A stretch of DNA of 51,673 bases from a virus: the IMG/VR virus record IMGVR_UViG_3300050196_000040; one strand, 5' to 3'. The translations under genes and the position numbers were made by a program. This document shows, piece after piece, positions 11,911-44,147 of this stretch (position 1 is the first letter of the stretch; each line of letters begins with the position of its first letter). The notes beneath the pieces are model-generated. The model was not told the origin of the DNA. It did not search any database and saw nothing but the letters and a program-made list of their open reading frames with translations.

Positions 11911-12534
11911 TTATACGCCAGTCTGACCAGTACCAGTGCCATTAGTCGAACTATTCAAGCGGACATAATAACTAAAGTATTGATCACCAGGAATATTATC
12001 AGGGCGATTGGGGAAGCCAACCACTTTAAGAGGCAATGTGGCCGTAGTTGCAGAAAGAGCTGCAATGGACATACCAGAAGCACCAGAAGCGGTGTTGCCA
12101 GCAGTCACATCCCAACTACCATTCAAACCAACGTTAGCAGTGATAGTAGCAGCAGCAACCGATTGAGTCAGATACTGAGCTTCATACACAATAGCAGGGT
12201 CAGTTGCTACAAGCAAATAACGGTCTGTGGAGGCACGACGATAAACAGGTGTGTTAAGGTCAGTGACCGGGGGAACATTCTGTGTATCACCAACACCTGA
12301 AAATAGGATGCCGACAACAATACCGAACGGAATATCCGCAGCAGCAGAAACACGAGTTACAGTGGGAACACCGGTAGCTGCACGGGCATCGCCCAGCAAC
12401 TTAACAGCATCACCCACCATAATAACGGAAGAATCAGATGCGGGAACAAAGGCTACCTCACCTTGCCCATTATAAGGGGCACCGGTGATTGTTTTAACGG
12501 GTCGAAAGCCGTTAAGACGATTTACAGTTGACAT
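11911..12534 (-). CDS. Putative head decoration/cement protein
   Basis: Start moved to ATG 12534 (MSTVNRL..) behind a GGAGA RBS; sits immediately upstream of the capsid gene, as decoration genes do. Confidence 0.3.
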   Translation of the reverse strand: MSTVNRLNGFRPVKTITGAPYNGQGEVAFVPASDSSVIMVGDAVKLLGDARAATGVPTVTRVSAAADIPFGIVVGILFSGVGDTQNVPPVTDLNTPVYRRASTDRYLLVATDPAIVYEAQYLTQSVAAATITANVGLNGSWDVTAGNTASGASGMSIAALSATTATLPLKVVGFPNRPDNIPGDQYFSYYVRLNSSTNGTGTGQTGV

Positions 12535-12586
12535 TAGTAATCTCCAAATTGTCAAATTTGATAAATCCTAATGGCAATAAAAGTGG

Positions 12587-12997
12587 TTAGTCGCGTGAAA
12601 TGTCGAGTTTACCATAATTACCATCAAGAGCTTTTTCTTTGATGGAGGCTTCTTGTGAGTTCACAAAAGCTTGTTTCTTTGCTTGATCTTCTTCATGCCA
12701 TTCTTTTTTGATACGCATGAGATAACCCTTAGTCCCTTGACCGACAGAGAAAATCTTTTTAGAGCTAACAGCAGTACCTTGCGATACTCGCTTGTCGCCT
12801 ACATCAGTAGAGCTATCGTCAACGAGTTCATACCCGCCTTCGATAAACTGCGCAATACGATCATCTGTATCGTTCACGACTCGGTATTCATATGCTGGGT
12901 CTTTACCCTTCACCGTAAGAATGTTACGCTGGCTCACAGGCACTCGTGTAACGCGGCTCACTGGAGCCTTAGAAATTGCTTCTTTTAGATTGGTCAT
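12587..12997 (-). CDS. Hypothetical head-module protein
   Basis: 136-aa charged ORF between Endo VII and the decoration-like gene. Confidence 0.4.
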   Translation of the reverse strand: MTNLKEAISKAPVSRVTRVPVSQRNILTVKGKDPAYEYRVVNDTDDRIAQFIEGGYELVDDSSTDVGDKRVSQGTAVSSKKIFSVGQGTKGYLMRIKKEWHEEDQAKKQAFVNSQEASIKEKALDGNYGKLDISRD

Positions 12998-19344: not shown

Positions 19345-19373
19345 ATTATACCATACTTTTGTCTATTTGTCAA
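19345..19373 (-). promoter_or_regulatory. Consensus sigma70-type promoter for the minus-strand (late) arm
   Basis: Minus strand reads TTGACA-17 nt-TATAAT with TGn directly upstream of the -10 (TTGACAaatagacaaaagtaTGgTATAAT). Confidence 0.7.
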
Positions 19374-19432
19374 TAGACAAATGAATATATTTACATAAAA
19401 TGCAAATATATTTGCTTTCTGCAAGAAAGCTA

Positions 19433-19461
19433 TTGACAATTCGACAGAATTGTGATACCCT
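19433..19461 (+). promoter_or_regulatory. Sigma70-type promoter firing rightward into the AT-rich hairpin region
   Basis: TTGACA (19433-38), 17-nt spacer containing TGa, -10 TACCCT (TAnnnT). Confidence 0.5.
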
Positions 19462-19495
19462 ATAATATATATTATATATTAATATAATATTATTA

Positions 19496-19537
19496 ATATA
19501 GAATAATATTATCTTTGTTGATAATATTATTCTATAT
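19496..19537. repeat. Perfect 18-bp AT-rich hairpin with C-TTTGTT-G loop (hairpin A)
   Basis: atatAGAATAATATTATC TTTGTT GATAATATTATTCTatat; every stem position pairs. Confidence 0.9.
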
Positions 19538-19572
19538 AATTAATATTTAATTTATTTAATATTAATAATATA

Positions 19573-19604
19573 AGAGAATAATATCTTTGTTGATATTATT
19601 CTCT
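19573..19604. repeat. Perfect 13-bp hairpin with C-TTTGTT-G loop (hairpin B)
   Basis: AGAGAATAATATC TTTGTT GATATTATTCTCT; exact reverse complement occurs at 33729..33760. Confidence 0.9.
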
Positions 19605-20002
19605 ATAGGTATTTAATATTAAAATAATAAAAGAGAAAGAAAATAGAATTATCACTAATGTTCTAATTCTAAAGAAAGAGAAAGGGGTACACTACGTGTA
19701 AGTGAGCGATAGCGAACGACATAACAAAGGGCCTAGAAGGCCTTTAAACAGCCCTACAAACGTCGTACGTAGTACTCCTAAGGGGTATGTAGCCAAGTGT
19801 AGTAATAATCGCTTGTAGAGCGTTTAAATAAGCCTACCCCATATACGTCTATTTTATTTAAAAAATATAAAATTTAGCAAGGAGCCTTACTGAATTATTC
19901 CACCCCGTAGATTTTCCCCCCTACCCCCTTTAATTATTATAATGAGTGTGCTTAATAAATAGGCATTTAGTCTAAACCATTATATTCAACCACCTACACA
20001 CC

Positions 20003-20588: not shown

Positions 20589-20712
20589 CTTTACACATTC
20601 TTTACAATGGCGTAAGTTTCATGTAAGGAAAGCATGTGTGTAATGTAAGTGTCAGCGGGAATTGTCCCATTAATTGTTTTAACTGTGCACCTAGGTGCGA
20701 AAGGGTATATAT

Positions 20713-21345
20713 ATGACCGATATAGCAGAGATGACCATCATTCAATCTGGTAAGGGCAAAGCGCCTACTAATAGCGACAAGGCTAAAGGCGCTGCACTCG
20801 CTGTAGTTTGTATTAAGTATGGCGTTAAGCGCATGGAACAAGAGGAAAAGGAAGCCGGAAAGCTGGGTGCCATTGTCAAGTCTATCAATGATTTGGCTCG
20901 GGATGGTCATGCGGAATTCCGTGCTGAATTGACAAAAGAGCTAAACCTTATTAAAGAACTTCGCCAGTCTACAGGGGTAACTAAAGAGCAAACCGCCGGC
21001 TATTCTTTCACGTCTTTTGAAACACTGTGCAGCAATTGGAAAACCATTAGCGCAGCTATTGAGATGGGTTATAGCGTCTTGAATGACGATATGGCACAAA
21101 AGCCTTGGAGTCTGGTGCTTGCTGAATCGGTGCAAATGAAACATGCTCACGCGTCCAATGCAGCCGAAAATGGTACACCAACCAAGCGCAAAGTGGGACG
21201 TAAATCCACGCCTATGATTGATAAGGCTATAAAGGCCATGAATGATCTGGATACAATCGAAGATATGATGGCCTTGTATAAGGCGCTGGAGGCCCGTATG
21301 ATTGCAGCTAAAGCCATTGAGGCTCGGGAAACTGCACCAGTCTAA
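20713..21345 (+). CDS. Hypothetical early protein
   Basis: Track ORF 20695..21345; ATG 20713 preferred; helical and charged; followed by two hairpins. Confidence 0.6.
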   Translation: MTDIAEMTIIQSGKGKAPTNSDKAKGAALAVVCIKYGVKRMEQEEKEAGKLGAIVKSINDLARDGHAEFRAELTKELNLIKELRQSTGVTKEQTAGYSFTSFETLCSNWKTISAAIEMGYSVLNDDMAQKPWSLVLAESVQMKHAHASNAAENGTPTKRKVGRKSTPMIDKAIKAMNDLDTIEDMMALYKALEARMIAAKAIEARETAPV

Positions 21346-23117: not shown

Positions 23118-23279
23118 ATGTTCATCAAGAAACTTCACCCCCATGTGTTCGATGTGTTCCTCGGTAATGGCTTCAACAATTGGACCCGTGTTCGTCGTGG
23201 TCATTGGGGTGTGTCAGTCATTGCTGGCAATCGTTTGCCCAAAGCCATTATGAAGGACATTCAAGATGCGCTCGCTTAA
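23118..23279 (+). CDS. Hypothetical early protein (53 aa), not in ORF track
   Basis: ATG 14 nt after palindrome 23092; MFIKKLHPHVFDVFLGNGFNNW.. Confidence 0.4.
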   Translation: MFIKKLHPHVFDVFLGNGFNNWTRVRRGHWGVSVIAGNRLPKAIMKDIQDALA

Positions 23280-23658
23280 GTTAAATCTTTTAATTCTCTC
23301 TAGTGTTGTTGCACTAGCCGCTTGTAGTAAGGATGAACCCCAATATGTACAGCCTCCCATCTATCAACCCCAACCTCAAGTTACCCAAGCTGTCCCCCAA
23401 CAGCAGCCTCAGGTTGTCTACCAGCAGGCGGCTCCTCAAGGTAATAACGATATGCTCATTGGTGGCATTATGGGCTATATGCTTGGTGGTGCTGGCAATC
23501 GTGGCGGAGGCGGGAGTGCTGGCGGTAATAGTCCTGTCACAAACCATACCACTACGGTGAATAAAACCATTGTGAACAAGACATATGTGCAGCCAAAGCC
23601 TAACTACTCTGCACCTCGTTCGTATAGCAGCCCTAGCTATGGAGGCCGTAGAAAATGA
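23266..23658 (+). CDS. Lipoprotein with Q/P-rich linker and glycine-zipper segment
   Basis: MRSLKLNLLILSSVVALAAC (signal peptide + lipobox LAAC); GGIMGYMLGGAGNRGGGGSAGG. Confidence 0.7.
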   Translation: MRSLKLNLLILSSVVALAACSKDEPQYVQPPIYQPQPQVTQAVPQQQPQVVYQQAAPQGNNDMLIGGIMGYMLGGAGNRGGGGSAGGNSPVTNHTTTVNKTIVNKTYVQPKPNYSAPRSYSSPSYGGRRK

Positions 23659-24242: not shown

Positions 24243-24451
24243 TTAGGCGGAGTATGGATGGGAGACTGATAGGTTCTATCACTCCATTCCAGCATCCCTC
24301 CCTGAAATCTGCACAGGCAGAGTGTAAAAGATTGGCAGGCATAATTCCAAACTCTACATTCTACCCCATGAAAGCACTCAAGGGATTTAAAAACCAGGGA
24401 GTGGTTAAAGAGCCTAAACTTGGAACTAAGTATGCTCAAGTATTCAATTAA
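24230..24451 (+). CDS. Hypothetical early protein
   Basis: 73 aa; AGGAGG RBS. Confidence 0.55.
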   Translation: MYIVIRRSMDGRLIGSITPFQHPSLKSAQAECKRLAGIIPNSTFYPMKALKGFKNQGVVKEPKLGTKYAQVFN

Positions 24452-24911
24452 AAAGAAGTATGGCTTCTTGGCTGCAATGGAAAATCTTGGGGAACGCTGG
24501 CGTAATGGTGTACGGGTTCATCCTGAGCCAGCCAATCGACTCCCTGCTATTGCTGGCCCCGCTGTGGGTGGTACGTTGCAAGATGAAATGGATATGCCTT
24601 GGAACAAGATTGATTATAGTCGTTGGTATGATATAAATGTAATGGGTCGATTCAAGGTGGGTGACTTGGTTACTCCACACTATATGGCGGAGCAAGTGGG
24701 GTTTCTTCCATACCATTGGAAGATTACCTATTGTAATGAGCTTCACCATACTGTAAAGTTTAGTAGGTCTAATGACCAACCTAAGTGCATTATAGTGCAG
24801 AACCTACAGAACGGGTTTACTTCCAAGTGCCCTAAAGAACTGCGCTTGCTTACTGAGAAGGAGATAGCTCTTGTTAACCTACAGAATATCAAAGTCCAAG
24901 GCACCGCGTAG
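24432..24911 (+). CDS. Hypothetical protein
   Basis: Track ORF 24420..24911 (TTG); first ATG at 24432. Confidence 0.5.
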   Translation: MLKYSIKKKYGFLAAMENLGERWRNGVRVHPEPANRLPAIAGPAVGGTLQDEMDMPWNKIDYSRWYDINVMGRFKVGDLVTPHYMAEQVGFLPYHWKITYCNELHHTVKFSRSNDQPKCIIVQNLQNGFTSKCPKELRLLTEKEIALVNLQNIKVQGTA

Positions 24912-25215
24912 AGTAGGTCAAGCAGTTAAAACTTTTAACTACGAAGATAAGGAGAAGCTTCTCCATTCCAACCTGAACAAGACATTCTTTAGGGTTGGTG
25001 ATATTGTCAGGTTTAAAAAACCTAGGCGCAATCCTCTAGTAGGAACTGTGATTGAGATTCAATCCAAGGTATCCGAAGTAACGTGGGTCAATGGTGGTAC
25101 ATCACCAATGAATATTATTTTGGAGGTTGTTAAGGGAAGCAACGGAGCTACCCCAAAGACAGAGCGAGTGAAAACCAACGTGAAGAAACTTCTTTTTGTG
25201 GAGGCTGCGAAATGA
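24871..25215 (+). CDS. Hypothetical protein (SH3/KOW-like VGDIVRFKK segment)
   Basis: TTG start 7 nt after GAAGGAG; 114 aa. Confidence 0.45.
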   Translation: MLTYRISKSKAPRRVGQAVKTFNYEDKEKLLHSNLNKTFFRVGDIVRFKKPRRNPLVGTVIEIQSKVSEVTWVNGGTSPMNIILEVVKGSNGATPKTERVKTNVKKLLFVEAAK

Positions 25216-25532
25216 ATGACTGTCTAGTTACAGTGGTAGATGTTGACCAAGGTGTGCGTGGTGAGTGGCGAGGCATACACAATTATGCTCGTGGTATTGC
25301 CACACATGAGGACTTTGATGGAGAGATTGAAGGTCTTTCCAATCAAGAGGTGCTGCGTCGTGTCAAGATGTGGAGTTGTCTTGAGAAAGATGTGCCCATT
25401 GTTGTAGAGCAAATGAGCCAAGAGTGGGTTGGCTATGAGATTAAAGTTTTTAAATTGAACCAAGTTTCTGTGCGTGTTCCGGGTGAGCTACGCAAGAAAC
25501 AACTAACCAAAGATGGGGTACTACCTGAATGA
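25212..25532 (+). CDS. Hypothetical protein, first gene of the amidoligase cassette
   Basis: ATGA overlaps at both ends. Confidence 0.55.
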   Translation: MNDCLVTVVDVDQGVRGEWRGIHNYARGIATHEDFDGEIEGLSNQEVLRRVKMWSCLEKDVPIVVEQMSQEWVGYEIKVFKLNQVSVRVPGELRKKQLTKDGVLPE

Positions 25533-26185
25533 AAAAGATTCTTTATACTATTATGTTTGGTGGCGACTGCTATCCATTCACTGACTTGGCTCAACAGATT
25601 ATTACCGTGCGTAACGTCGATCAAATCGTGGAGAAAGATGCAGTGATGGTTGTATGGGGTGGGGCTGATATTAGTCCTGCTTTGTATGGTCATAAGCAAT
25701 CCCTTACTACGCATTGCTACAAGCAACGTGATGATATTGAGTGGGCTGCTATGAAGAAGGCTGCACAGCTAGGTATCCCCATCATTGGTGTATGCCGTGG
25801 AGCACAGATGCTTTGTGCCTTGGCTGGTGGTTTCTTGATTCAGGACACTACTGACCATGCCGGACGTGGGCATCAAGTGACAACAAAAGAGGGTCGGTCA
25901 TTTGCTGTAAATTCTATCCACCATCAGATGATGGCTGGTTTGGAGAATACAGAGCATGAGCTTCTTGCATGGGTTGATGTTCCCCGTAGTCGGCATTACA
26001 TCTATAAAGATGATGTAAAATACCATACCCCAGAGGGCTTTAAAGAACCAGAGATGGTTTATTTCCCGAAAGTCAAAGGATATGCCATTCAATGGCATCC
26101 CGAAGGAATGTCGGAAGATTGTGAAGCAACCAAGTACATCATGGAGCAGTATTATGCCCGAGAAAACCTCTCCGTTGGAGTTTAA
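25529..26185 (+). CDS. Class I glutamine amidotransferase-fold thiol peptidase (peptidase C26 / PuuD-like gamma-glutamyl hydrolase)
   Basis: IIGVCRGAQML nucleophile elbow and AIQWHPE His-Glu motif. Confidence 0.75.
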   Translation: MKKILYTIMFGGDCYPFTDLAQQIITVRNVDQIVEKDAVMVVWGGADISPALYGHKQSLTTHCYKQRDDIEWAAMKKAAQLGIPIIGVCRGAQMLCALAGGFLIQDTTDHAGRGHQVTTKEGRSFAVNSIHHQMMAGLENTEHELLAWVDVPRSRHYIYKDDVKYHTPEGFKEPEMVYFPKVKGYAIQWHPEGMSEDCEATKYIMEQYYARENLSVGV

Positions 26186-26513
26186 AACTCTATTAAATAG
26201 TTTAACTGGTGTTGTATACGAGCAGACAAATGATAAGCCAAAGACGATTCCAGCAGGGTATGGGTCAACAGCTTGTGAAATGTCCCGTTTGTGTGAATGC
26301 TGTGGGGCTAGTGCTTATGGCTATCGGACATTTAATTCTGTGTATGCCACAAACATAGTTCCAGAAAAAGAGGTTGGAAGGTGGGATACGAAACAAATCA
26401 TAGTGTCTGGACCAATAGGTAAGGAAGACCTCCCGGTTCTCCCAACTGGAAGGAATTTCATGCGACTTAAGGGAGACGAGAAAGACTTCCTTATTACATG
26501 GGAGACTCAATGA
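26154..26513 (+). CDS. Hypothetical Cys-rich protein
   Basis: Track ORF 26082..26513; ATG 26154 preferred (GGAG upstream); CEMSRLCECCG. Confidence 0.45.
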   Translation: MPEKTSPLEFKTLLNSLTGVVYEQTNDKPKTIPAGYGSTACEMSRLCECCGASAYGYRTFNSVYATNIVPEKEVGRWDTKQIIVSGPIGKEDLPVLPTGRNFMRLKGDEKDFLITWETQ

Positions 26514-26827
26514 TATATAGTGTTTACATTGCATCATTCATGGGTGCTTATGCTAATGAAAGGCCCCAGAATGTGGCAGCTCTCATCAAGGCTGCACCAG
26601 AGGATGCCTCGTTTATCTTCATCCCTACAATTAGGCAGATAGAGGAGTTTAAAAATTGGCTGACTAAGTGGAAGTTAAATAATTTAATTCAATATGCTAG
26701 TCCAGAGCCATTTATTAATGGAAGTCACCCAACAGAGGGACCAAGGTTGTATATCTATGTGCTTTCTAAATCTGAAATAAAGGAGAGTGGTTATGTCACA
26801 GCAACTAACATTAGAGGACAAGCGTAA
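26510..26827 (+). CDS. Hypothetical protein, paralogue of 27092..27493
   Basis: ATGA-coupled start MIYS..; shares SFIFIPT..Q.E.F..W..KWKL..NGSH with its paralogue. Confidence 0.55.
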   Translation: MIYSVYIASFMGAYANERPQNVAALIKAAPEDASFIFIPTIRQIEEFKNWLTKWKLNNLIQYASPEPFINGSHPTEGPRLYIYVLSKSEIKESGYVTATNIRGQA

Positions 26828-27095
26828 GATTCTCCCCACCATAGGAGTACAACCAATGCTTGAGGGAGGTCCAGCTAATGGACTACGCTCCCTACAGGCT
26901 GGCTTTGCTGGATGCTGTGGGTCTATTTATATCTCAGAGGAGAGCAAGGAACAGGAGTGGGTTAAGGAGTACGATAAACGTATTTGGTGGCAGAGGGGAG
27001 TGGGCATTCCAGAGGCTCTTAAAGAAAGAGGTAAGGAGAGTCTACTTATTCCTGATGTGTCAGGTAATGTACTTGTTCAATGGGATGATGTATGA
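26793..27095 (+). CDS. Hypothetical protein
   Basis: ATG 26793, 7 nt after AGGAG. Confidence 0.5.
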   Translation: MSQQLTLEDKRKILPTIGVQPMLEGGPANGLRSLQAGFAGCCGSIYISEESKEQEWVKEYDKRIWWQRGVGIPEALKERGKESLLIPDVSGNVLVQWDDV

Positions 27096-27493
27096 TATAC
27101 TCAATTACTTTTCAGGCATTGCAAGAGCGGTACACTGTACCCACATACTATTCTAACAGTATGTATGATAGGAACTCAGAGTATAAATATATTCGGGATG
27201 TGCGTCCTTGGATGGGTAAGGTGCTTAATAGCCTTGAGATAGTAGCAGACTACATTAAGGAGAGTGAGGAGGATAGTTTTCTATTCATCATCACCAATAC
27301 ACAGGTGGAGGCGTTTGATAAGTGGATTAAGAAATACAAACTGGAAGAGTTTGTAACTTACCGTATGGAACGTCCCGTAACTAACGGAAATCATCTTCAT
27401 AACGGACGCAACCTTTTGTTCGTGGCGATGTGTTCCAAGATGCATGTATGGCGTGATATGTTTGATGAAACAATTGAATGGAGTGATGTATGA
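27092..27493 (+). CDS. Hypothetical protein, paralogue of 26510..26827
   Basis: ATGA-coupled MIYS.. start; SFLFIITNTQVEAFDKWIKKYKL..NGNH. Confidence 0.55.
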   Translation: MIYSITFQALQERYTVPTYYSNSMYDRNSEYKYIRDVRPWMGKVLNSLEIVADYIKESEEDSFLFIITNTQVEAFDKWIKKYKLEEFVTYRMERPVTNGNHLHNGRNLLFVAMCSKMHVWRDMFDETIEWSDV

Positions 27494-28278
27494 AAATTAT
27501 GCTTGGCTGTGACCCGGAGGCTTTCCTCATGGATGTGAATGGACAACTCAAATCGTCCATTGGATTGATTGGTGGAAGCAAGGAACTTCCTCGCCCCCTT
27601 CCCTTGGGTGAGGGTTATGCTGTTCAAGAGGATAATGTGGCCTTAGAGTTTAACATTCCTCCAGCAGAAGGTCGGTCACAATTCGTGGATAGCATTCGTG
27701 GTACATTAAACTTTTTAACTGAAATGGTTCAAGGTGAATACGGATTTACAATATCTGAAATCTCTGCTGCATCGTTCCCAGAGGCAGAACTCTCAACTCC
27801 TGAGGCTCATATCTTCGGATGTGACCCTGACTTCAACGCTTGGACGAAAGAGGTTAATCCAAAACCTGCGGCAGCAGATAAGGCTCTGCGATCATGCGGT
27901 GGGCATGTTCATATTGGATTCGAGAAAGGGTCAATTGAAGAGGTAGAATTGATTCGCCATATGGACTTGCATCTTGCTGTGCCTGCTGTGCTGATGGACA
28001 AGGGTTTGCTGCGTAAGGAGTTGTATGGGAAGGCAGGAGCTTTCCGGGATAAATCTTATGGTGCTGAGTATCGTACTCTCAGTAACTTCTGGATTTTCAA
28101 CAATCGTTTGATTGAATGGGTATGGGACAATACAAGTCGTGCCGTTGCTGCTGCGGAATCGCGGCTGGTTATTAGCCAAGAGGACGAAGCCGACATTATT
28201 AAAGCCATCAACACAAACGACGTTGCAATTGCAGAGAAGCTAATTAAAAAGTTTAACTTGGATGTTGTATATGTCTAA
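27490..28278 (+). CDS. GCS/glutamine-synthetase-like COOH-NH2 ligase (phage phiEco32-like type 2 family)
   Basis: MLGCDPEAFLMD N-terminus, EDNVALEFN, CGGHVHIG, GAEYRTLSNFW match my recollection of the phage COOH-NH2 ligase family. Confidence 0.65.
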   Translation: MKIMLGCDPEAFLMDVNGQLKSSIGLIGGSKELPRPLPLGEGYAVQEDNVALEFNIPPAEGRSQFVDSIRGTLNFLTEMVQGEYGFTISEISAASFPEAELSTPEAHIFGCDPDFNAWTKEVNPKPAAADKALRSCGGHVHIGFEKGSIEEVELIRHMDLHLAVPAVLMDKGLLRKELYGKAGAFRDKSYGAEYRTLSNFWIFNNRLIEWVWDNTSRAVAAAESRLVISQEDEADIIKAINTNDVAIAEKLIKKFNLDVVYV

Positions 28279-28441
28279 AGAGAGACTTATGGAGCTTATT
28301 CAAAAATTTGCAGAGCAGTCCAGCTTCTATGTTTGTGAAACAACCATCCATTACTGGCATGTGGAGGAAGCAATCGAGCAGTATATCAAGCAATGGCGAC
28401 AAGTAGAAGTAACCAAGGTTATGGGGAATACTAATGTTTGA
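28271..28441 (+). CDS. Hypothetical protein (56 aa), not in ORF track
   Basis: Overlaps both neighbours by a few nt; fills the gap between 28278 and 28434. Confidence 0.4.
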   Translation: MSKERLMELIQKFAEQSSFYVCETTIHYWHVEEAIEQYIKQWRQVEVTKVMGNTNV

Positions 28442-29069
28442 AAAATTTATGTCTGTAGAAGCGAATGATTTTCGCCAACGCTACCAAGGTACTTATGGAT
28501 ACTTTACCCACAAAGGTAAACGTACCCTGACACGCTTGGACAAAATTCAAGCTGACGGTCGGTCATCTTTTGTGGAATTCTCAGATCGTGATGGTTTGAA
28601 GTATCTTCTTCATCCTGATAGCGAAGATAATGATACTGGCTTTGAGTTCCTTCCTCCAAAGTCCGCCTACTTTAATACTAAAGAGGGTGTTCCACTCTTG
28701 GTGACTCGTGTTCCTGCTCGACAATATCTGCGTGGTATTTGTGACCGCAATACTCAGATTACTGATATGCGAAACAATCTACGAGAAGTGGGGTTTGAGA
28801 CACTCACTAAATTGTTTGAGGATAAGACAGATGCTCAGAGAGCTATGGCTGCTGCAATTGTGTCTGATTCCTCTGGGCGTGGGGTGGCTATTAGTCCTTC
28901 GTTTGCTGTGTCTTTTGCACTTGGTTCAATTAAATGTTTTAATCAAACCATTGGGCAGTGTCAATTTGATAAGGGATTGTTCACAATCTCCCTTGATAGT
29001 CAAGAGTTGTGGGGACAGGAAATCACGGATGCTTTCCGTCGTGCTAAGTTGAACATGATTTTGAAATAA
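28434..29069 (+). CDS. Hypothetical protein of the amidoligase cassette
   Basis: 211-aa ORF; no recognisable motif. Confidence 0.55.
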   Translation: MFEKFMSVEANDFRQRYQGTYGYFTHKGKRTLTRLDKIQADGRSSFVEFSDRDGLKYLLHPDSEDNDTGFEFLPPKSAYFNTKEGVPLLVTRVPARQYLRGICDRNTQITDMRNNLREVGFETLTKLFEDKTDAQRAMAAAIVSDSSGRGVAISPSFAVSFALGSIKCFNQTIGQCQFDKGLFTISLDSQELWGQEITDAFRRAKLNMILK

Positions 29070-29078
29070 GGAGTAGAT

Positions 29079-30191
29079 ATGAATCCAGTAGATGTATGGG
29101 GTGTTGGTAAGCCTAATGTAAAGAAGTACATTAAAGTTACCGAAGGATGTGTCTCTCCTGATTTGGTTATTGGTTTGGAGCTTGAAACTGAAAATGTCAA
29201 CACCAGTGCCGATGCTGCAAGCAAGATGGCAAAACCTTACAACTTTGTTGTAGAGAATGATGGTAGTTTGCGTGGAGTGGCATATGAGTATATCAGTCTC
29301 CCTATGCGTACTGAACATTGCCTGTCTGCTCTTACAGACTTCCTTGCAATAAACAAGTTTACTGATGCCAACTACACAGACCGCTGCTCTGTTCATGTAC
29401 ACGTAAATTGTACAGATATGCAGATGGAGCAAATCTCTTCCCTTGCTTTGCTATACACTGTGATGGAAGATATTATGTTCGAGTTTGTTGGTGGTCATCG
29501 TGATAGTAACATCTACTGCATCCCTTGGAACCAGTGTCGTGCCCACCTTGACTTGGTGAACAAGTTTCTTGGCGACCCTAACACTGTGCTCAAGCGTTGG
29601 AACAAGTATACTGCATTGAACATGCTGCCTCTTGCCAAGCAGGGTACAGTAGAGTTCCGCCAGATGCACGGTACAGCAGATATGAAGAAGCTAGGTGTGT
29701 GGATTAACTTGATTGGCTCTTTGTTTAAGTGGGCTAAGGCTTATGAGTTAAAAGTTTTAATCAGCGAGTTGAAGGAACTTAATTCCAACTCCCACTATGA
29801 GGCATTCTTTAATAAGATTGTCTCAGGCTTGCTTCCTTACAACGAAGTCTATCGTGAGAAGCTGGAGCAAGGGGTTATCTTTGCTAAATATAGCTTGGTG
29901 AGTATGGAGTCCAAACGTACTAAGCCCTCAGCTAAAGTTGCAGCAGCTACGGCAGCAGTACCTGATTGGTTGAATGTTGCCTTTGCAGAGCCTGCTATCC
30001 GGGTACGTCGTCCTGAAATTAATGCTGCTGCTCAACGGATTGATGCAGAATTAAATGCTATGCGTCAACGTCAAGAAGTAGCAGAAATGCTTCGTAATGG
30101 AGCTATGCAAGCCCAGCCTGTGGCTGCTGCTGGAAACTTGTGGGGTGTGGCCCCTAATGAAGTTCGTGTTAATGTAGAAGGAGAGTTTTAA
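29079..30191 (+). CDS. Amidoligase (Amidoligase_2-like, glutamine-synthetase fold)
   Basis: IGLELETEN, DGSLRG.AYEYISLP, CSVHVHVN, TVEFRQMHGT motifs; Ala-rich C-terminal tail. Confidence 0.7.
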   Translation: MNPVDVWGVGKPNVKKYIKVTEGCVSPDLVIGLELETENVNTSADAASKMAKPYNFVVENDGSLRGVAYEYISLPMRTEHCLSALTDFLAINKFTDANYTDRCSVHVHVNCTDMQMEQISSLALLYTVMEDIMFEFVGGHRDSNIYCIPWNQCRAHLDLVNKFLGDPNTVLKRWNKYTALNMLPLAKQGTVEFRQMHGTADMKKLGVWINLIGSLFKWAKAYELKVLISELKELNSNSHYEAFFNKIVSGLLPYNEVYREKLEQGVIFAKYSLVSMESKRTKPSAKVAAATAAVPDWLNVAFAEPAIRVRRPEINAAAQRIDAELNAMRQRQEVAEMLRNGAMQAQPVAAAGNLWGVAPNEVRVNVEGEF

Positions 30192-30192
30192 T

Positions 30193-31560
30193 ATGTGTGG
30201 ACTTGTCGCAATTGTTACAAAGAATAGCCATGGCTTTACTAAGGAACAAGTAGATGCCTTTGATAATCTCCTGTTTATTGACGCCTTGCGCGGCATGGAC
30301 TCTACTGGTGTGTTTGTCGTGGACAAAGATGGTAGTATGGACTTGGCTAAGGAAGCTACAGCTTCTTATGACTATCGCCAAGAGGAGGCATATAAAGACC
30401 TATGCAAGAAGGCTTTCCAAACAGGACGGGCTATGGTGGGCCATAATCGTGCAGCTACCAAAGGGGCCATCACTGATGCTAATGCACATCCTTTTGTGGT
30501 AGATGATCGCATCACCTTGTGCCATAATGGTACACTATGGGGCGATTGGTCTAAGCTCACAGATGCTAAGGTTGATGTGGATAGCAATGCCATTGCCCAT
30601 AAAATCCATGAGTGTGATGATGATGTTGAGAAAGCATTGCAGCAAGTTAACGGAGCATATGCCCTCATTTGGCATGACTTCAAGAACAACACACTCAACT
30701 TTGTCCGTAACAACCAGCGTCCCCTTCATTATGTAGAGACAACTAATGGATGGATTTGGGCATCTGAGGCTAACATGATTGAGTGGATTCTTGCACGACA
30801 CTCATTCAAAGCACAGTCTAAGGTGGAGATGCTTAATGCTGGTACTCTTGTTACTTATGACTTCACCAACAACTCTTGGAAGCTAGATCATAAAGATATT
30901 GAGTTGGAGGCTCCTAAGCCTGCTGTTGTTACACAACATACAACATACCCCAATCATCCATATGCTAATGGCTACAGCTACTCAGGAGGTCGTTACATGG
31001 ACGCTCAATGGGAAGCAGAGGATGATGACGGCGTAGTATTTGGTGGTAAGCCTGTGTGTGAGATTCCACAACATATGTCAGGTATGCAGCGTAAGCTGGC
31101 TGACTCTATGGAACAGAACACTCGCATTGAACGTGCTAAGATGACTGGCCGCACTATCTCCAATGAGAATCGTTTGGCTGCTCAATATAAGTTTGACATT
31201 CCCTCGATTACATTTGCAGAAAACTCTGAAAAGGTTGCCTCAGATAATGATTGGGTGTTGGCTACTTGTATTGACTCTGATACTGTCAAGCCTAGCGATG
31301 GTACTTATGGCTACTTCATCTATGCCAAGCTGCACAAAGACCCCAACTATATGGTCAAGTGCTTTCTTCCTCCTTCGACAAGTGAAATGGATATTCTAGA
31401 CTGGTGTCTCAATGGTCAGGAAATTGAGTTCCATGTCATCAGTCGTCAATGGCGTGCTTACAATGACGCTGCACACGGTCAGGGTTTTGCTATGCTCAAC
31501 TGTGACCTATATCGTTCCCCCCTATCCGCTTTGGATAAAAAACTTGAGGCTCTACTCTAA
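30193..31560 (+). CDS. Class II (Ntn) glutamine amidotransferase-like protein with unknown 230-aa C-terminal domain
   Basis: MCGLVAIV (Cys2 nucleophile), RGMDSTG, GHNRAAT, HPF, CHNGTL pattern of GATase-2 domains. Confidence 0.75.
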   Translation: MCGLVAIVTKNSHGFTKEQVDAFDNLLFIDALRGMDSTGVFVVDKDGSMDLAKEATASYDYRQEEAYKDLCKKAFQTGRAMVGHNRAATKGAITDANAHPFVVDDRITLCHNGTLWGDWSKLTDAKVDVDSNAIAHKIHECDDDVEKALQQVNGAYALIWHDFKNNTLNFVRNNQRPLHYVETTNGWIWASEANMIEWILARHSFKAQSKVEMLNAGTLVTYDFTNNSWKLDHKDIELEAPKPAVVTQHTTYPNHPYANGYSYSGGRYMDAQWEAEDDDGVVFGGKPVCEIPQHMSGMQRKLADSMEQNTRIERAKMTGRTISNENRLAAQYKFDIPSITFAENSEKVASDNDWVLATCIDSDTVKPSDGTYGYFIYAKLHKDPNYMVKCFLPPSTSEMDILDWCLNGQEIEFHVISRQWRAYNDAAHGQGFAMLNCDLYRSPLSALDKKLEALL

Positions 31561-32276
31561 TGGCTAAACTCGTTCTCGTTCCCCATAACATGGGTTCTCG
31601 TTCTGCTAAAGAACTTGCTATTGCACTCTCCCACAAGCTGGGCTATAAGGTGTATCGTGTTGCCCCTCAACGTGTCCGTGGTCGGTCATCCTTTCAGTTG
31701 CAAGGTGGCACAGACAAACTTACGCAATTAAATCTTTTTACTCAACACAATGTTACATGCCCTGAATACACTACCAATCGTGATGTGGCTGCTGGTTGGA
31801 TTACTGCTGATAATTCTACTGTCGTATGTCGTACATTGCTACGTTCGTCGGAAGGCAAAGGAATTGTTGTCGCAGATAGTGTGGAGCAGTTGGTCCGCGC
31901 CCCTCTTTATACCAAGTACGTCCCAAAGAAGGCAGAGTACCGAGTGCATGTCCTCGATGGAGAAGTCATCGGAGTCCAAATGAAAAAGAAACGGAAAGGA
32001 TTTGAAGATGAACGTAATACTAAGATTCGTAATCTTGCTAATGGTTATGTCTTTTGCCGTGAAGGTATTGTGGAACCCGCTGGCTTGCGTGACTTGGCGA
32101 CAAAGGCAACGAATGCTCTTGGTTATCGTCTTGGTGCCGTGGACATTGCCCACAACGTGAAGAAAGAAAAACTTGTCTGTCTCGAAGTTAATGCCTGCCC
32201 CGGAATGCAGGGACAAACTCTTGAGGACTACTCCGATTGTATCTCCTTTGACCACATTGTGAAGGGAATTCGATAA
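31560..32276 (+). CDS. ATP-grasp ligase (RimK-like)
   Basis: SSEGKGIVV, EYRVHVLDGEVIG, CLEVNACPGM; TAATG coupling at both ends. Confidence 0.7.
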   Translation: MAKLVLVPHNMGSRSAKELAIALSHKLGYKVYRVAPQRVRGRSSFQLQGGTDKLTQLNLFTQHNVTCPEYTTNRDVAAGWITADNSTVVCRTLLRSSEGKGIVVADSVEQLVRAPLYTKYVPKKAEYRVHVLDGEVIGVQMKKKRKGFEDERNTKIRNLANGYVFCREGIVEPAGLRDLATKATNALGYRLGAVDIAHNVKKEKLVCLEVNACPGMQGQTLEDYSDCISFDHIVKGIR

Positions 32277-32506
32277 TGCGTTGCTATTGCTGCCAGCGTT
32301 TGCTGAATGATTTTGAGTCTACTCGTAAGAGTAAAACTACTGGAGAGTATCTAGATATGTGTAATGCATGTGTTGCATCTGTCTCAGATCAACTAGAGGT
32401 AATTGATCGCACTGACTTTAACGAAGGAGATGTTCCAGACGAGGAGATTGAATTTGACGACACGTTTGCAGACGATAACAATCTTTATGGAGATGATAAT
32501 GAATAA
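32276..32506 (+). CDS. Small zinc-ribbon protein with acidic tail ending in Glu
   Basis: CYCC..CNAC cysteines; C-terminus DEEIEFDDTFADDNNLYGDDNE. Confidence 0.6.
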   Translation: MRCYCCQRLLNDFESTRKSKTTGEYLDMCNACVASVSDQLEVIDRTDFNEGDVPDEEIEFDDTFADDNNLYGDDNE

Positions 32507-33918: not shown

Positions 33919-35085
33919 TTGCGAGACAACTACAAAGAACTGTCTCACCTATACACTGCTTTGAAAGAATGTCATTCTCTTATTGAGACTGACTTATCCC
34001 TTGAAAGTTTCCAAGCATTCTTCTTTAGCAGATTCCCAGACCTAGACAAAGAGATTTATCTCTCCTTGTTTAAAACGCTCCAGGACACGAAAATAGATGC
34101 TGGTATGGGGGTAGCCTTACTCAAGCAAATTAAACAGCGTAGACAGGCTCTAATCCTGTCTGAGGCCTACTTTAAATACTCAAATGGAAACCTAACTCGT
34201 GAACAACTCAAATCAGTCCTTGATGATACTCGCACAGAGAGCACAGAAACGGCAGAAGAATTTGAATTCGTCACTACTTCACTATCATCAATCATCGAAG
34301 ACATATTCCAAAAACCTGGACTACGATGGCGCTTGGATGCGCTTAACAAATCTCTTGGAAGTCTCCGCAAGGGCAACTTCGGATTTATCTTTGCAAGACC
34401 AGAGGCCGGAAAAACTACCTTCCTAATCTCCGAAGTTAGTTATATGATGCAGCACCTACGGGATGAAGATGGGTCGGTCATCTGGTTTAATAACGAACAA
34501 GTTGGTGCTGAGGTTATGCTGCGTATGTACCAAGGATACTTTGGTTTACGTCTTGAGCAAGTTAGAGCCAACCCAAAGAAGTATGAGCAAGAGTTTATAG
34601 AGCAGACAAAAGGAAGATTCCTCCTAGTAGATAATGCTGCTATTGACAAAGGATATGTAGAGCGAGTAGTTAAAAGATTTAATCCAAGTTTGATTGTAAT
34701 AGATCAGATTGATAAGGTTAAAGGGTTTGCAGCAGACCGTGAAGACCTACGACTCGGAGCCATCTACATATGGGCACGAGAGTTGGCTAAACAATACTGC
34801 CCTGTTATTGGTGTTTGTCAAGCGGATGGTTCGGGTGAAGGTCAGAAGTGGCTCACCATGGATAATGTCTCTAGTGCAAAGACTAGCAAGCAGGCAGAAG
34901 CAGATTGGATTTTAGGCATAGGTACTGTCCATCAAGAAGGGATGCAGTTTATTCGCTATTTGAATATTAGCAAGAACAAACTCCTTGGAGACACGGACAC
35001 TATTCCCCGCCTGCGACATGCTCGATTAGAAGTGTTAATCGAGCCTGAGATTGGCCGATACAAGGATTTAATAAAGTATGAATGA
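33919..35085 (+). CDS. DnaB-like replicative helicase
   Basis: FIFARPEAGKTTF (Walker A), SLIVIDQID (Walker B), GVCQADGSG; the frame is open back to 33820 without a canonical start codon. Confidence 0.8.
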   Translation: MRDNYKELSHLYTALKECHSLIETDLSLESFQAFFFSRFPDLDKEIYLSLFKTLQDTKIDAGMGVALLKQIKQRRQALILSEAYFKYSNGNLTREQLKSVLDDTRTESTETAEEFEFVTTSLSSIIEDIFQKPGLRWRLDALNKSLGSLRKGNFGFIFARPEAGKTTFLISEVSYMMQHLRDEDGSVIWFNNEQVGAEVMLRMYQGYFGLRLEQVRANPKKYEQEFIEQTKGRFLLVDNAAIDKGYVERVVKRFNPSLIVIDQIDKVKGFAADREDLRLGAIYIWARELAKQYCPVIGVCQADGSGEGQKWLTMDNVSSAKTSKQAEADWILGIGTVHQEGMQFIRYLNISKNKLLGDTDTIPRLRHARLEVLIEPEIGRYKDLIKYE

Positions 35086-36272
35086 CCACAGTAACATTTG
35101 ATGTAGAGACTAAAATTGTAGCAAAAGGAAATCCGTTCACGGCGAGTGGCAAGTTGATTTCCTACTCTATTAAACCCGATGACAAAGACGTGTCTTTCAA
35201 CTACCATACAAGCATTGACTTCTTGACTGAACTGCGAGCATACATGCAGCAGGCTAAGTTGCTTGTAGGTTTTAATTTGAAATTCGATCTATCTTGGGCA
35301 GCACGACATGGCATATATCCACCAGACCGCATTAGGGTTTGGGATTGCCAGCTTGCAGAGTTCATCCTAACAGGACAGAAAGGAAGCTACCCGTCACTAG
35401 ACGAGTGTTGCGCCAAGTACAATCTAGGAACTAAGGATGACAAGATTGCTGAGTATTGGAAGATGGGCATTTGTACAGAGTTTATTCCTAAAGAGGAACT
35501 AGAGTTCTACAACAACTTAGATGTAGACCTAACGTATAAACTCTATCTTGCTCAGAAAGCTGTGATGACAGAGGCACAGTTAAAACTTTTAATGGTGGCA
35601 GGACTCGATCTACTCGTCCTTGCTGAGATGGAACAGAATGGAGTTAAATTTGACACTAAGCTCTGCACTACTAAAGCCGAGGAAACCAAAGAGCGCCTCG
35701 AAGCACTCACAAAAGAGCTACTTGCTTATTCCCCTACTCCCGATATTAATCTTGATAGTGGGCAGCATCTGTCTTGTCTACTCTATGGTGGGAAGTTTGA
35801 AATAGATTATGTCACACAAGAGACTGCCTACTATAAAGGAAACTCGAAGGCAACTGGGGCAAAGAAAGGCGATGCTTATGAAAAGTCCGTACATACGCTT
35901 ATTGTCTTTGACTGTCCAAGCCTATTTACTCCACTCCCTAAAAGTGAAACGAAACTCAAGAAAAAACTTACATCTGGTGAAGAAATAACAATTTATGTTA
36001 CAAACGAAGACACCCTCAAACAACTCAAGTGCAAAGGACAGTACCAGCGCAAGTTGGTACAACTCCTCCTTGAACGGGCAGAGCTTGCCAAGCTACTTGA
36101 CACCTACTATTCTGCCCTACCTACTCTATTAGAAGAAATGGAATGGGGTGATGTGCTTCACCCAACTTATAACCAGTGCGTAGCAAGAACTGGACGACTA
36201 TCGAGCAGCCGCCCTAACGCACAAAACTTTTCAAAAGATGTAGATGAACTTTTGATAAGTGCTTATGAATAG
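35082..36272 (+). CDS. DNA polymerase I family, part 1 (3-5 exonuclease + N-terminal polymerase half)
   Basis: TFDVETK (Exo I), GFNLKFDL (Exo II), YNNLDVDLTY (Exo III), ARTGRLSSSRPNAQNF; stops just before motif A. Confidence 0.85.
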   Translation: MTTVTFDVETKIVAKGNPFTASGKLISYSIKPDDKDVSFNYHTSIDFLTELRAYMQQAKLLVGFNLKFDLSWAARHGIYPPDRIRVWDCQLAEFILTGQKGSYPSLDECCAKYNLGTKDDKIAEYWKMGICTEFIPKEELEFYNNLDVDLTYKLYLAQKAVMTEAQLKLLMVAGLDLLVLAEMEQNGVKFDTKLCTTKAEETKERLEALTKELLAYSPTPDINLDSGQHLSCLLYGGKFEIDYVTQETAYYKGNSKATGAKKGDAYEKSVHTLIVFDCPSLFTPLPKSETKLKKKLTSGEEITIYVTNEDTLKQLKCKGQYQRKLVQLLLERAELAKLLDTYYSALPTLLEEMEWGDVLHPTYNQCVARTGRLSSSRPNAQNFSKDVDELLISAYE

Positions 36273-36295: not shown

Positions 36296-36769
36296 ATGGA
36301 AGATGTCAAACAGCTATATGAAACAACAGAATTAACCATTGCGCAGATTGCGAAAGAATGTAATATTCCTTTTTATCATGTATATAAATATATTAAGGCT
36401 AATTATTCTGTAGAGTATAGAGCTAATAGAAAATCCCTTTGCTATAGAAATAGCAAACTAGGTGAAAAGAATCCTATGCTAGGAAACTTTCTTGAGAATC
36501 ATCCAAGATACTTGGGAGAAATTTCAGATAACAAAGGTTACCTAATGAAGATAAAGCCTAGTTGGTATACAGGACGAAAGAAAAGTATCCATGTGTTTGT
36601 GCACCACTTGGTTATATGTGAGTCTCTAGGAATCACAGAAATTCCTACAGGATATTGTGTACATCATAAAGATCATAATCCATTAAATAATTTAATTGGT
36701 AATCTTCAGTTGATGACTTTATCAGACCATACAAAACTTCATTTACAGGAACGAAATGCCACTGGTTAA
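36296..36769 (+). CDS. HNH homing endonuclease inserted in the DNA polymerase gene
   Basis: HHKDHNPLNNLIGNLQLMTLSDHTKLH; own RBS (TAGGAG); 3-prime end overlaps the restart of the polymerase by 14 nt. Confidence 0.8.
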   Translation: MEDVKQLYETTELTIAQIAKECNIPFYHVYKYIKANYSVEYRANRKSLCYRNSKLGEKNPMLGNFLENHPRYLGEISDNKGYLMKIKPSWYTGRKKSIHVFVHHLVICESLGITEIPTGYCVHHKDHNPLNNLIGNLQLMTLSDHTKLHLQERNATG

Positions 36770-37481
36770 TGTAGATGTAAAGAGCCTTGAAAACGTTGTG
36801 GCTGCTGAGTTGTCTCAGGACAAAGTAATGATGCAGGAAATTAGAGAGAAGCAAGACCTACATGCTAATAATCAAAAGGCATTTGGTTTGCCTAGTAGGT
36901 TGGTAGCTAAGGTGTTGGTCTTCCGTATTCTTTATGGTGGTGGGGCATATTCATTTGCCAACGACTCAGACTTCACTGCAACATCTACATCAGTTAAGTA
37001 TTGGGAGAAAGCAATTGAAGCTTTCTATGACAAATATAAAGGAGTAAAGGTTTGGCATGAGCAACTTATTCAGACTGCCCAACGAGAAGGTCGTCTTGTC
37101 ATTCCCAGTGGACGACACTTCCCGATTTCGCCAATGGTTAATAAATGGAACGGAGGTATGGACTGGCCCATCACAGTCATTAAGAATTATCCTGTCCAAG
37201 GGTTTGGAGCCGACTTGGTTATGCTTGCACGACTCGAAGCTAGGAAACGACTTAGAGCTTCTGGACTTGAGTATAAACTCATATCTACGATACATGATTC
37301 CATTGTCGCGGACTGTCCCAGCCATGCTGTTCGGGATGTTGGCAGGATTCTTTATGACTCGATAGAGGCTGTTCCAGCTCTGTGTAAAAGAGTGTTTGGA
37401 TATGACTTTAGCCTCCCTCTTACAAGTGAAGTACAATATGGTCCAAATAAAAAAGAGATGAAAGATTTAGTGTTGACATAA
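36756..37481 (+). CDS. DNA polymerase I family, part 2 (motifs A, B, C)
   Basis: VDVKSLENVVAAELSQD (motif A), RLVAKVLVFRILYGGG (motif B), STIHDSIVAD (motif C). Confidence 0.85.
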   Translation: MPLVNVDVKSLENVVAAELSQDKVMMQEIREKQDLHANNQKAFGLPSRLVAKVLVFRILYGGGAYSFANDSDFTATSTSVKYWEKAIEAFYDKYKGVKVWHEQLIQTAQREGRLVIPSGRHFPISPMVNKWNGGMDWPITVIKNYPVQGFGADLVMLARLEARKRLRASGLEYKLISTIHDSIVADCPSHAVRDVGRILYDSIEAVPALCKRVFGYDFSLPLTSEVQYGPNKKEMKDLVLT

Positions 37482-43730: not shown

Positions 43731-44147
43731 CTATGGTTGTAAGAACTGTGCCTTCTCACTATTACGGCGAGAAGTAATTTCAGGTGGAATATGCCACTTA
43801 TCAAACTCTAATGCAGCACCAGCTATGTCAGCTAAGTTGAGCTTCTTGAGTAGAGTGCTTCTTGTGAAAGCACCCACCCCGACATTAAATATAAAACTAC
43901 ACAAAGCGTCAAACTGGTTCTGGGTAAGACCCACTCTTACATTCTGGTTGATAGCATCCTCACATTTGACAATATCTAACTGCAAGGCGGATATAACTTG
44001 GGCATCCGTCCACTGGAGCATAGCAACTACTTCCGGTCCTGTATGACCGACCCCAATTGTCCAAATTCCTTTTGTGTCCTTATAAGCCTTATTACGCTTA
44101 CCTTCCCTCAGCAGAAGCACTGCTAGTCCTCTATCACTCATTTTCAT
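43731..44147 (-). CDS. Endolysin, GH24 lysozyme
   Basis: LLLREGKRNKAYKDTKGIWTIGVGHTG. Confidence 0.9.
   Translation of the reverse strand: MKMSDRGLAVLLLREGKRNKAYKDTKGIWTIGVGHTGPEVVAMLQWTDAQVISALQLDIVKCEDAINQNVRVGLTQNQFDALCSFIFNVGVGAFTRSTLLKKLNLADIAGAALEFDKWHIPPEITSRRNSEKAQFLQP

Follow-up and report, generated by a model that had tools for sequence, protein, structure and literature searches.

We analysed a stretch of viral DNA of 51,673 nucleotides (IMG/VR record IMGVR_UViG_3300050196_000040; the whole stretch at its full length is called the window here) and found that its region 25212-32506 carries a copy of the amidoligase module already described in phages phiEco32 and LUZ24. Thirteen consecutive open reading frames (ORFs) on the plus strand, named g01 to g13, make up this region, and six of them form the functional unit: a tight core of five genes (g07, g09, g10, g11 and g12) and an upstream gene for a Peptidase C26-type (C26) protein, g02. 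Five of these six genes encode enzymes of amide-bond chemistry, namely a gamma-glutamyl hydrolase of the class-I glutamine amidotransferase (GATase) fold, two carboxylate-amine ligases, a class-II N-terminal nucleophile (Ntn) amidotransferase and a RimK-like ATP-grasp ligase; the sixth, g09, encodes an all-beta protein. For the unit as a whole we lean, without strong conviction, towards a cytoplasmic, glutamate-centred pathway that would make and then trim gamma-glutamyl and oligo-glutamyl amide bonds on an amine acceptor.

The module gave its name to the Pfam family PF14395 ('Phage phiEco32-like COOH.NH2 ligase-type 2'). Its core occurs in the same order in LUZ24 (gp16-gp21), phiEco32 (gp86-gp80), the Kuravirus Bas89, Proteus phage Privateer, a Zobellviridae phage and Alcaligenes phage QDWS535, and in LUZ24, phiEco32, Bas89, the Zobellviridae phage and the Alcaligenes phage it lies upstream of the primase gene. 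The g07 family was found in 319 cultured phage records (LUZ24 gp16 and phiEco32 gp86 included) and the g10 family in 328. The 33 matches to the g07 family in genome collections lie only on metagenome-bin or short draft scaffolds that gave no evident cellular context and no reliable host, and about 14 of these scaffolds, 46-55 kb long, can be read as binned phage genomes.

The extent of the unit was defined from loci related to that of the window. These came from three sources: metagenome contigs encoding g09 homologs, 80 IMG/VR loci that are the best of the 524 g07 relatives in that database, and cultured phages. Presence was counted by tblastn in the 61 related loci with enough flanking sequence and by iterated hidden Markov model (HMM) searches in all 87 (Table 1). 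Four enzyme genes, g02, g10, g11 and g12, were each found in 54 to 59 of the 61 loci in constant order, gene order was colinear in nearly all of the 87, and the co-conservation of the module genes, a check named in the initial annotation, is far beyond chance. The gaps between g07 and g09, g09 and g10, g10 and g11, and g11 and g12 were at most 50 nt in 85-97% of related loci; for g07 and g09, which abut or overlap in relatives, this was the case in 67 of 77 loci, and g10 and g11 were adjacent in 66 of 78. The C26 gene g02 adjoined g07 in 25 of 83 loci and was otherwise separated from it by variable small inserts (median gap, 415 nt). In 44 of 62 loci g13 was separated from g12 by over 500 nt; it sits closer to the primase gene, which it adjoined in 21 of 61. 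Based on these presence counts and intergenic distances, the unit consists of the core of five plus the C26 gene, not of thirteen genes. The initial annotation had taken the whole region for a thirteen-gene cassette; thirteen coupled ORFs do exist, but among the eight that it left unassigned only g09 belongs to the conserved unit.

Table 1. Genes of region 25212-32506 and other feature groups of the window, with the number of related loci in which each gene was detected
Feature	Position	Strand	Length (aa)	Description	Loci by tblastn (of 61)	Loci by iterated HMM (of 87)
g01	25212..25532	plus	106	accessory gene directly 5' of the C26 gene; no Pfam or PHROG match	3	26
g02	25529..26185	plus	218	class-I GATase fold, Peptidase C26-type gamma-glutamyl hydrolase	59	
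g03	26154..26513	plus	119	lineage-specific; homolog in 1 related locus; no family match	1	
g04	26510..26827	plus	105	g06 paralog; dispersed small phage gene family	3	about 21 (g04/g06 family)
g05	26793..27095	plus	100	lineage-specific; homologs in 2 loci only	1	
g06	27092..27493	plus	133	g04 paralog	3	about 21 (g04/g06 family)
g07	27490..28278	plus	262	phiEco32-type COOH-NH2 ligase type 2; first carboxylate-amine ligase		
g08	28262..28441	plus	59	ORFan inserted between g07 and g09; doubtful gene	0	0
g09	28434..29069	plus	211	all-beta, tandem small barrels; between the two ligases		79
g10	29079..30191	plus	370	Amidoligase_2; second carboxylate-amine ligase; low-complexity C-terminal extension	58	
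g11	30193..31560	plus	455	N-terminal class-II (Ntn) glutamine amidotransferase domain, Cys2 nucleophile	58	
g11 domains	residues ~236-305; ~308-455			disordered linker; C-terminal domain of two helices and an oligonucleotide/oligosaccharide-binding (OB)-like barrel		
g12	31560..32276	plus	238	RimK-like ATP-grasp ligase without the RimK N-terminal domain	54	
g13	32276..32506	plus	76	zinc-ribbon-like N-terminus (MRCxCC...CxxC) and acidic tail	38	63
Portal, TerL, major head protein, head-closure protein		minus		structural and packaging genes		
Early and replication block	about 20.6 to 43.7 kb	plus				
Primase, DnaB-like helicase, split family-A DNA polymerase, 5'-3' exonuclease, MazG, ribonucleotide reductase	within the early and replication block	plus				

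Junctions among the 13 ORFs are mostly ATGA or TAATG overlaps or gaps of 1-10 nt, with three longer overlaps between g02 and g03 (32 nt), g04 and g05 (35 nt) and g07 and g08 (17 nt). The starts of g03, g04 and g05 listed in Table 1 were refined from ribosome-binding sites; that of g04 forms an ATGA overlap, and that of g05 is preceded by an AAGGAG ribosome-binding site. The six genes of the unit seem to be co-expressed from a single, translationally coupled operon of early or middle timing that lies immediately upstream of the replication genes.

All five enzymes named in the initial annotation were recovered where it had placed them, with matches past the Pfam thresholds. The catalytic residues align as well: the Cys of GVCRG, Cys2 and the E/H ligand motifs of both ligases are conserved in homologs, and for four of the enzymes the catalytic residues are at least 95% conserved (50-88 homologs). 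In g02, the Cys of GVCRGAQ aligns with its counterpart in the AICRG(M/L)Q of Lin1909 and PuuD, and the QWHPE motifs of g02 and PuuD align; the triad C89/H190/E192 is at least 95% conserved among 82 homologs. NCBIfam places it nearest to gamma-glutamyl-CDP-amidate hydrolase (1.2e-11) and PuuD (9e-7), with scores far below the equivalog cut-offs of both (45.1 bits against 250 and 28.6 bits against 266, respectively).

The match of the first ligase, g07, to COOH-NH2_lig (PF14395; 1.1e-11) was above the gathering score, and that to phrog_3815 reached 3e-78. Its motifs GCDPE, QEDN.A.EFN, GCxPD, GGHVH and YGxEYR are invariant in homologs, and it is 38-42% identical to phiEco32 gp86 and LUZ24 gp16. 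The second ligase, g10, matched Amidoligase_2 (PF12224; 1.2e-9) and phrog_7469 (2e-40), and PF12224 was also matched by 19 of 19 aligned g10 homologs, LUZ24 gp18 and phiEco32 gp84 included. Invariant residues of g10 comprise E34, E36 and E38 of GLELE, D61, R102, H106 and H108 of HVHVN, E130, R141, and E192 and R194 of VEFR, the three motifs being invariant in Amidoligase_2 homologs. In the locus of Escherichia phage Bas89 (L003, 4988-6299), the COOH-NH2 ligase is annotated as a join of two pieces around an HNH endonuclease gene, an arrangement that suggests an intron or homing element within a core module gene.

The amidotransferase domain of g11 matched GATase_6 (1.4e-14 over residues 75-192), GATase_7 and models of the GlmS N-domain (7e-18), and it was aligned to the GlmS glutaminase domain 1xff. 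M1-C2-G3, R86, T89, N97-H99-P100, H111-N112-G113 and D130 are invariant in 56 homologs of this class-II glutamine amidotransferase (GAT-II) type. We take C2 to be the nucleophile, and R86 and D130 to stand at the GlmS positions that bind the free alpha-carboxylate and alpha-amino group of glutamine. Judged from these residues, g11 keeps an intact glutamine/gamma-glutamyl pocket. The C-terminal ~220 residues of the protein match no Pfam family, and no SIS, phosphoribosyltransferase or Asn-synthase domain was found there. In the AlphaFold2 (AF2) model, residues 308-455 are predicted with a per-residue confidence (pLDDT) above 90 and form two helices and a five-stranded barrel. Homologs of g11 nearly always carry a tail of ~200 aa (median, 208 aa; n = 78) whose sequence diverges fast; a word-indexed search with the tail alone returned no match, probably through a limit of the index. 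In one related locus (L007, 11102-12606), the amidotransferase is called as two overlapping ORFs, one for the Ntn domain and one for the C-terminal domain (a 219-aa ORF, 11947-12606, matched by the tail HMM at 3e-52), reflecting either a frameshift or a genuine split.

Two GATase-fold proteins in company with two ligases raise the question of whether the module performs glutamine-dependent amidation. Here g02 with g07 and g11 with g10 would be glutaminase-synthetase pairs turning carboxylates into carboxamides with ammonia from glutamine. The paired arrangement of the genes described above agrees with such a scheme, as do the GATase folds of both putative glutaminase partners, the integrity of their glutaminase residues and the location of R86 and D130 at positions for free glutamine. 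We nevertheless find it distinctly improbable. The match of g02 to Peptidase_C26 (5.5e-18) is far better than that to the generic GATase family (3.8e-8), and variable inserts part g02 from g07 in most loci. Moreover, LUZ24 and phiEco32 are without an annotated class-I GATase and carry instead a gamma-glutamyl cyclotransferase (GGCT), which cannot supply ammonia.

The ATP-grasp ligase g12 matched RimK (7.5e-5) and phrog_2599 (5e-50). Its family profile aligned with the RimK structures 5zct and 4iwx (3.5e-11), including EVN...PG, only from RimK residue 85 on. K53, K123, E126, D195, E209 and N211 are invariant. The best NCBIfam models of g12, MptN (tetrahydromethanopterin:alpha-L-glutamate ligase) and rimK_fam, are both alpha-L-glutamate ligases, and its scores stayed far under the cut-offs (rimK_fam, 26.6 bits against 143; S6 ligase, 15.8 bits against 331).

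The remaining member of the core, g09, is a near-universal component of the module, and we propose it as a substrate-presenting or adaptor subunit. Its AF2 model (pLDDT 93) consists of successive small barrels and three helices. Structure searches of BFVD matched only uncharacterised phage proteins of about 180-260 aa (E values down to 2e-13), among them proteins of amidoligase-carrying phages such as Vibrio phage Vp_R1. The family counts 951 representatives at 50% clustering, and almost all of the best 150 of the 951 occur as free-standing proteins with lengths near 200 aa. Across the broad family, Y17 and the motif R92-x-P-x-R-Q97 are conserved, the motif lying in a stretch without predicted secondary structure, and an N-terminal MFEKF is invariant inside the clade of the window. 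The g09 HMM recovered the middle ORF of the Alcaligenes phage (2e-18) and an ORF of the Zobellviridae phage (5e-5). The Kuravirus ORF at the g09 position was not significant by sequence; a protein of Kuravirus phage myPSH1131 gave a fold match of 8e-3. A minority architecture occurs in loci L066-L068, L071, L073, L076 and L084, where the module genes are rearranged into the order ATP-grasp gene, one or two C26 genes, COOH-NH2 ligase, GAT-II, a long Amidoligase_2 of about 500-600 aa and finally a second GAT-II-like ORF; no g09 gene was detectable in those loci, and no g09 domain was detectable inside their long Amidoligase_2 variants.

The kinship of g12 to RimK and the presence of g09 bear on whether the module tags proteins. 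Glutamate, oligo-glutamate or a short peptide would then be put on a phage or host protein in the style of RimK and ribosomal protein S6 or of PafA and Pup, with g09 or a g09-bound protein as the target and the hydrolases as erasers. We regard this as unlikely. It would account for RimK being the closest relative of g12 and for a near-universal partner that is non-enzymatic and made of small barrels of an often peptide-binding kind; the R-x-P-x-R-Q motif and the clade-invariant MFEKF N-terminus of g09, and the existence of one g09-Amidoligase_2 fusion (representative P0224), also point in this direction. However, MFEKF is absent from the Alcaligenes, Zobellviridae and Kuravirus homologs, and the single fusion could be either genuine or an artefact of a frameshift between overlapping genes. 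Moreover, GGCT, C26 and Ntn enzymes normally take small gamma-glutamyl compounds. The Pup-like tagging put forward in the initial annotation found no footing: Pfam scans of the 13 ORFs at E values up to 0.1 gave no PafA, Dop or Pup-ligase match, and neither a GGQ/GGE-type C-terminus nor any small ORF with a conserved C-terminus was seen. A phage-confined covalent conjugation that makes g09 a carrier or target rather than a passive adaptor, in which the three ligases build a glutamate-containing chain on g09 itself, or on a protein bound to it, and the C26 and Ntn enzymes edit that chain is a long shot. If true, it would be a new protein-conjugation system restricted to phages.

We favour the glutamyl pathway because of the nearest models of g02 and g12, the g11 pocket unaccompanied by a synthase domain, the GGCT of sister lineages and the enzymology of the folds involved. 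To our knowledge, all characterised ligases of the glutamine synthetase (GS), gamma-glutamylcysteine synthetase (GCS) and PafA fold activate the gamma-carboxylate of glutamate. GGCT accompanies the core in LUZ24, phiEco32, Bas89, the Zobellviridae phage and the Alcaligenes phage. C26 and GGCT are each found with the same ligase core in different lineages, which speaks for gamma-glutamyl intermediates. Among the three readings offered in the initial annotation, gamma-glutamyl chemistry of the PuuA/PuuD kind gave the best family-level fit, although the PuuD equivalog score was not reached. In the pathway that we envisage, the ligases would form two or three successive ATP-dependent, glutamate-centred amide bonds in the cytoplasm and so give an amine-bearing acceptor its gamma-glutamyl and oligo-glutamyl linkages. 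This acceptor may be held or presented by the OB-like g11 tail and by g09. Removal or remodelling of the gamma-glutamyl groups would follow, by the C26 hydrolase and the Ntn domain, a task for which sister lineages would additionally use GGCT. By analogy with PuuA/PuuD, EgtA/EgtC and BtrJ/BtrG, gamma-glutamylation could serve as a handle or protecting group. It is the glutamate specificity, the order of the steps and the adaptor roles that we infer in this scheme.

Several points weigh against the glutamyl pathway. Glutamate specificity is extrapolated from distant relatives, with scores far below the equivalog cut-offs, and the two GATase-fold proteins could act as ammonia donors instead. The GS-like fold of g07 and g10 is predicted from Pfam family membership and motif pattern; single-sequence and profile searches with both proteins against PDB sequences gave no meaningful relative, and a profile-profile comparison of g07 with g10 (hhalign) aligned the HxH motif alone and was not significant. 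The best PDB structure matches of g09 are Tudor/SH3-like barrels, none with an E value below 0.01, and the top PDB fold matches of the g11 tail are nearly all OB folds but not significant (best E value, 7e-3). Literature searches turned up only repetitions of the 2009 prediction for the module, and no substrate, product or phenotype for any member.

That prediction is the source of a cell-wall interpretation. Iyer, Abhiman, Burroughs and Aravind reportedly gave the first description of the phiEco32/LUZ24-type amidoligase module in 2009. The module genes are listed in a LUZ24-like genome paper (PMC3890496). A 2025 paper (PMC11945000) describes the cluster as a putative module for peptidoglycan modification and credits its reference 46, which we take to be Iyer et al. 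2009; an OM43 phage paper (PMC10580990) refers to the same source when it mentions cell-wall modification and superinfection exclusion. Both descriptions fit the credit that the initial annotation had given to the 2009 survey. Full-text searches found no experimental substrate for the module, again in agreement with the initial annotation. Under the interpretation so relayed, the three ligases would build an unusual peptide on peptidoglycan precursors, blocking superinfection or preparing lysis. Among the named host genera of cultured g07 carriers, the ten most frequent all belong to the Gram-negative Proteobacteria, which is compatible with such a role. So is the chemistry of the peptidoglycan stem, with its gamma-linked D-glutamate and its assembly by ATP-dependent amide ligases. 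We still hold a cell-wall role to be doubtful. Pfam and NCBIfam matches of the core proteins are just to GATase, ligase and ATP-grasp families, none of them cell-wall related, and the neighbours of the module are replication genes, not lysis genes. In addition, the Ntn pocket and the kinship of g02 to PuuD and gamma-glutamyl-CDP-amidate hydrolase point to gamma-glutamyl groups with a free alpha-amino group, whereas that of the iso-glutamate in the stem is acylated.

The neighbourhood of the module also bears on a role in nucleic-acid modification, in which amino-acid groups would be put on DNA, tRNA or other RNA. The module always lies directly upstream of genes for primase, helicase and DNA polymerase, and the OB-fold matches of the g11 tail include anticodon-binding domains of tRNA synthetases and single-stranded DNA binders. 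Furthermore, amidoligase and amidotransferase domains have been reported near thymidine-hypermodification genes in viral contigs (PMC8989533). We consider such a role very improbable, however. In Pfam searches of 10 other plus-strand ORFs (nine of the replication block at 36.3-43.7 kb and one at 20695-21345), no hydroxymethylase, base-modifying kinase or glycosylase-type transferase was found, nor did those ORFs include any of the thymidine-hypermodification set (pyrimidine hydroxymethylase, 5-hydroxymethyldeoxyuridine (5-hmdU) kinase, aGPT-Pplase). There are no tRNA genes in the window, and the OB matches themselves fall short of significance.

The small ORFs outside the unit fall upstream of g07, within the core and at its downstream end. 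Homologs of g01 always lie just upstream of g02 and are preceded by homologs of the window ORFs 24420-24911 and 24871-25215. Roughly one quarter to one third of related loci have this set of three unassigned ORFs, a conserved block directly 5' of the C26 gene (24420-25532 in the window) that may be an accessory part of the module. The duplicated pair noted in the initial annotation is g04 and g06, which are 39% identical (E = 7e-14) and both start with MIYS. Their family gave no family match. Extra copies occur immediately upstream of the primase gene in L010, L012, L018, L023, L026, L031 and L050, so the family is not specific to the ligase cassette. A second duplicated pair of g03 and g05 was considered and rejected, g05 not being similar to g03. 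No homolog of g08 was found in the 87 loci.

The Cys-rich protein of the initial annotation, g13, is indeed zinc-ribbon-like, but it tracks the primase gene rather than the cassette and is probably a member of the replication block. Since it stands next to primase across genomes, it may assist replication as an accessory protein. The sequence of its tail is not conserved and often ends in E or D. We also considered g13 as a LysW- or S6-like substrate of g12. In a comparison with LysW/LysX its general shape fits, but there was no LysW family match and the tail is not conserved; the candidate was rejected for this variable tail and because g13 stays beside primase in genomes where inserts come between the two blocks.

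The window looks like the nearly complete genome, about 50 kb in size, of a tailed phage that is uncultured, and the identical contig is present in JGI metagenome data. No cultured phage was matched by megablast of the whole region, and the closest cultured relative found was Alcaligenes phage vB_Af_QDWS535, whose large terminase subunit (TerL) is 48% identical. The family-A DNA polymerase is encoded in two ORFs (35082-36272 and 36756-37481) with an HNH endonuclease gene (36296-36769) between them, a split of the kind reported for LUZ24-like phages. Where the late and early blocks diverge (intergenic region 19345-19620), the minus strand has a perfect sigma-70 consensus (TTGACA, 17 nt, TATAAT), and several AT-rich near-consensus sites and a 13-bp inverted repeat are also present. 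An ORF of 130 aa (23266-23658) has a lipoprotein-like signal with a LAAC lipobox followed by Gln/Pro-rich and Gly-rich regions, and an ORF of 1471 aa among the structural genes (44144-48559, minus strand) has no PHROG match. PADLOC returned no defence-system match except one weak chance hit.

With about 320 cultured genomes, the module is among the more widespread uncharacterised phage enzyme sets. Among its carriers are therapy-relevant Bruynogheviruses of Pseudomonas and Kuraviruses of E. coli. In a genome of 50 kb, five or six genes are devoted to amide-bond chemistry, with strongly conserved catalytic residues, and the substrate of the module, once found, would show a new phage route of rewiring host chemistry. 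For experiments the window offers little extra leverage, since the same core is available in cultured model phages. It sharpens the problem by defining a minimal core, by the near-universality of g09 and by the occurrence of C26 and GGCT on the same core according to lineage.

Among systems with known chemistry, PuuA/PuuD, EgtA/EgtC and BtrJ/BtrG each combine an ATP-dependent glutamate ligase, of GS/GCS fold or ATP-grasp type, with an enzyme that removes the gamma-glutamyl group. The removing enzymes are of the class-I GATase/C26, Ntn GAT-II or GGCT type. Compared with these pathways, the phage proteins stay below equivalog thresholds, and the decarboxylase, oxidase and carrier protein of the pathways are not present. 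With RimK, g12 shares the ATP-grasp core and EVN...PG, whereas the first ~85 RimK residues are missing and nothing points to S6 as its target.

The closest comparison is with the modules of phiEco32 and LUZ24. The five-gene core (PF14395 ligase, ~200-aa protein, Amidoligase_2, tailed GAT-II and RimK-like ligase) and its position are the same, whereas sequence identities are only 25-45%. GGCT (AIG2, UPF0131) is present in LUZ24 and phiEco32 but not in the window or most of its clade: in tblastn searches with three phage GGCTs the best E value in the window was above 1 and 8 of the 87 loci were matched, and there was no Pfam AIG2 match. We treat GGCT as accessory, since this component varies across lineages. 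Conversely, the C26 gene of the window has no annotated counterpart in LUZ24 or phiEco32. The window also lacks counterparts of the two unassigned genes of ~300-400 aa found before the ligase in LUZ24, phiEco32 and Privateer (checked with the Bas89 pair and Zobellviridae ORF21), and the genes upstream of the ligase in those three phages gave no Pfam matches. Alcaligenes phage vB_Af_QDWS535 has the gene order of the window and likewise a split primase and helicase, with identities of 41% for g02, 45% for g07, 31% for g10, 37% for g11, 36% for g12 and 36% for g13; it differs in a GGCT gene upstream, and g01, g03-g06 and g08 were not found there. The module and the prediction of its function were already known from such phages; new here are a copy in an uncultured phage, the near-universal occurrence of g09 and the OB-like character predicted for the g11 tail.

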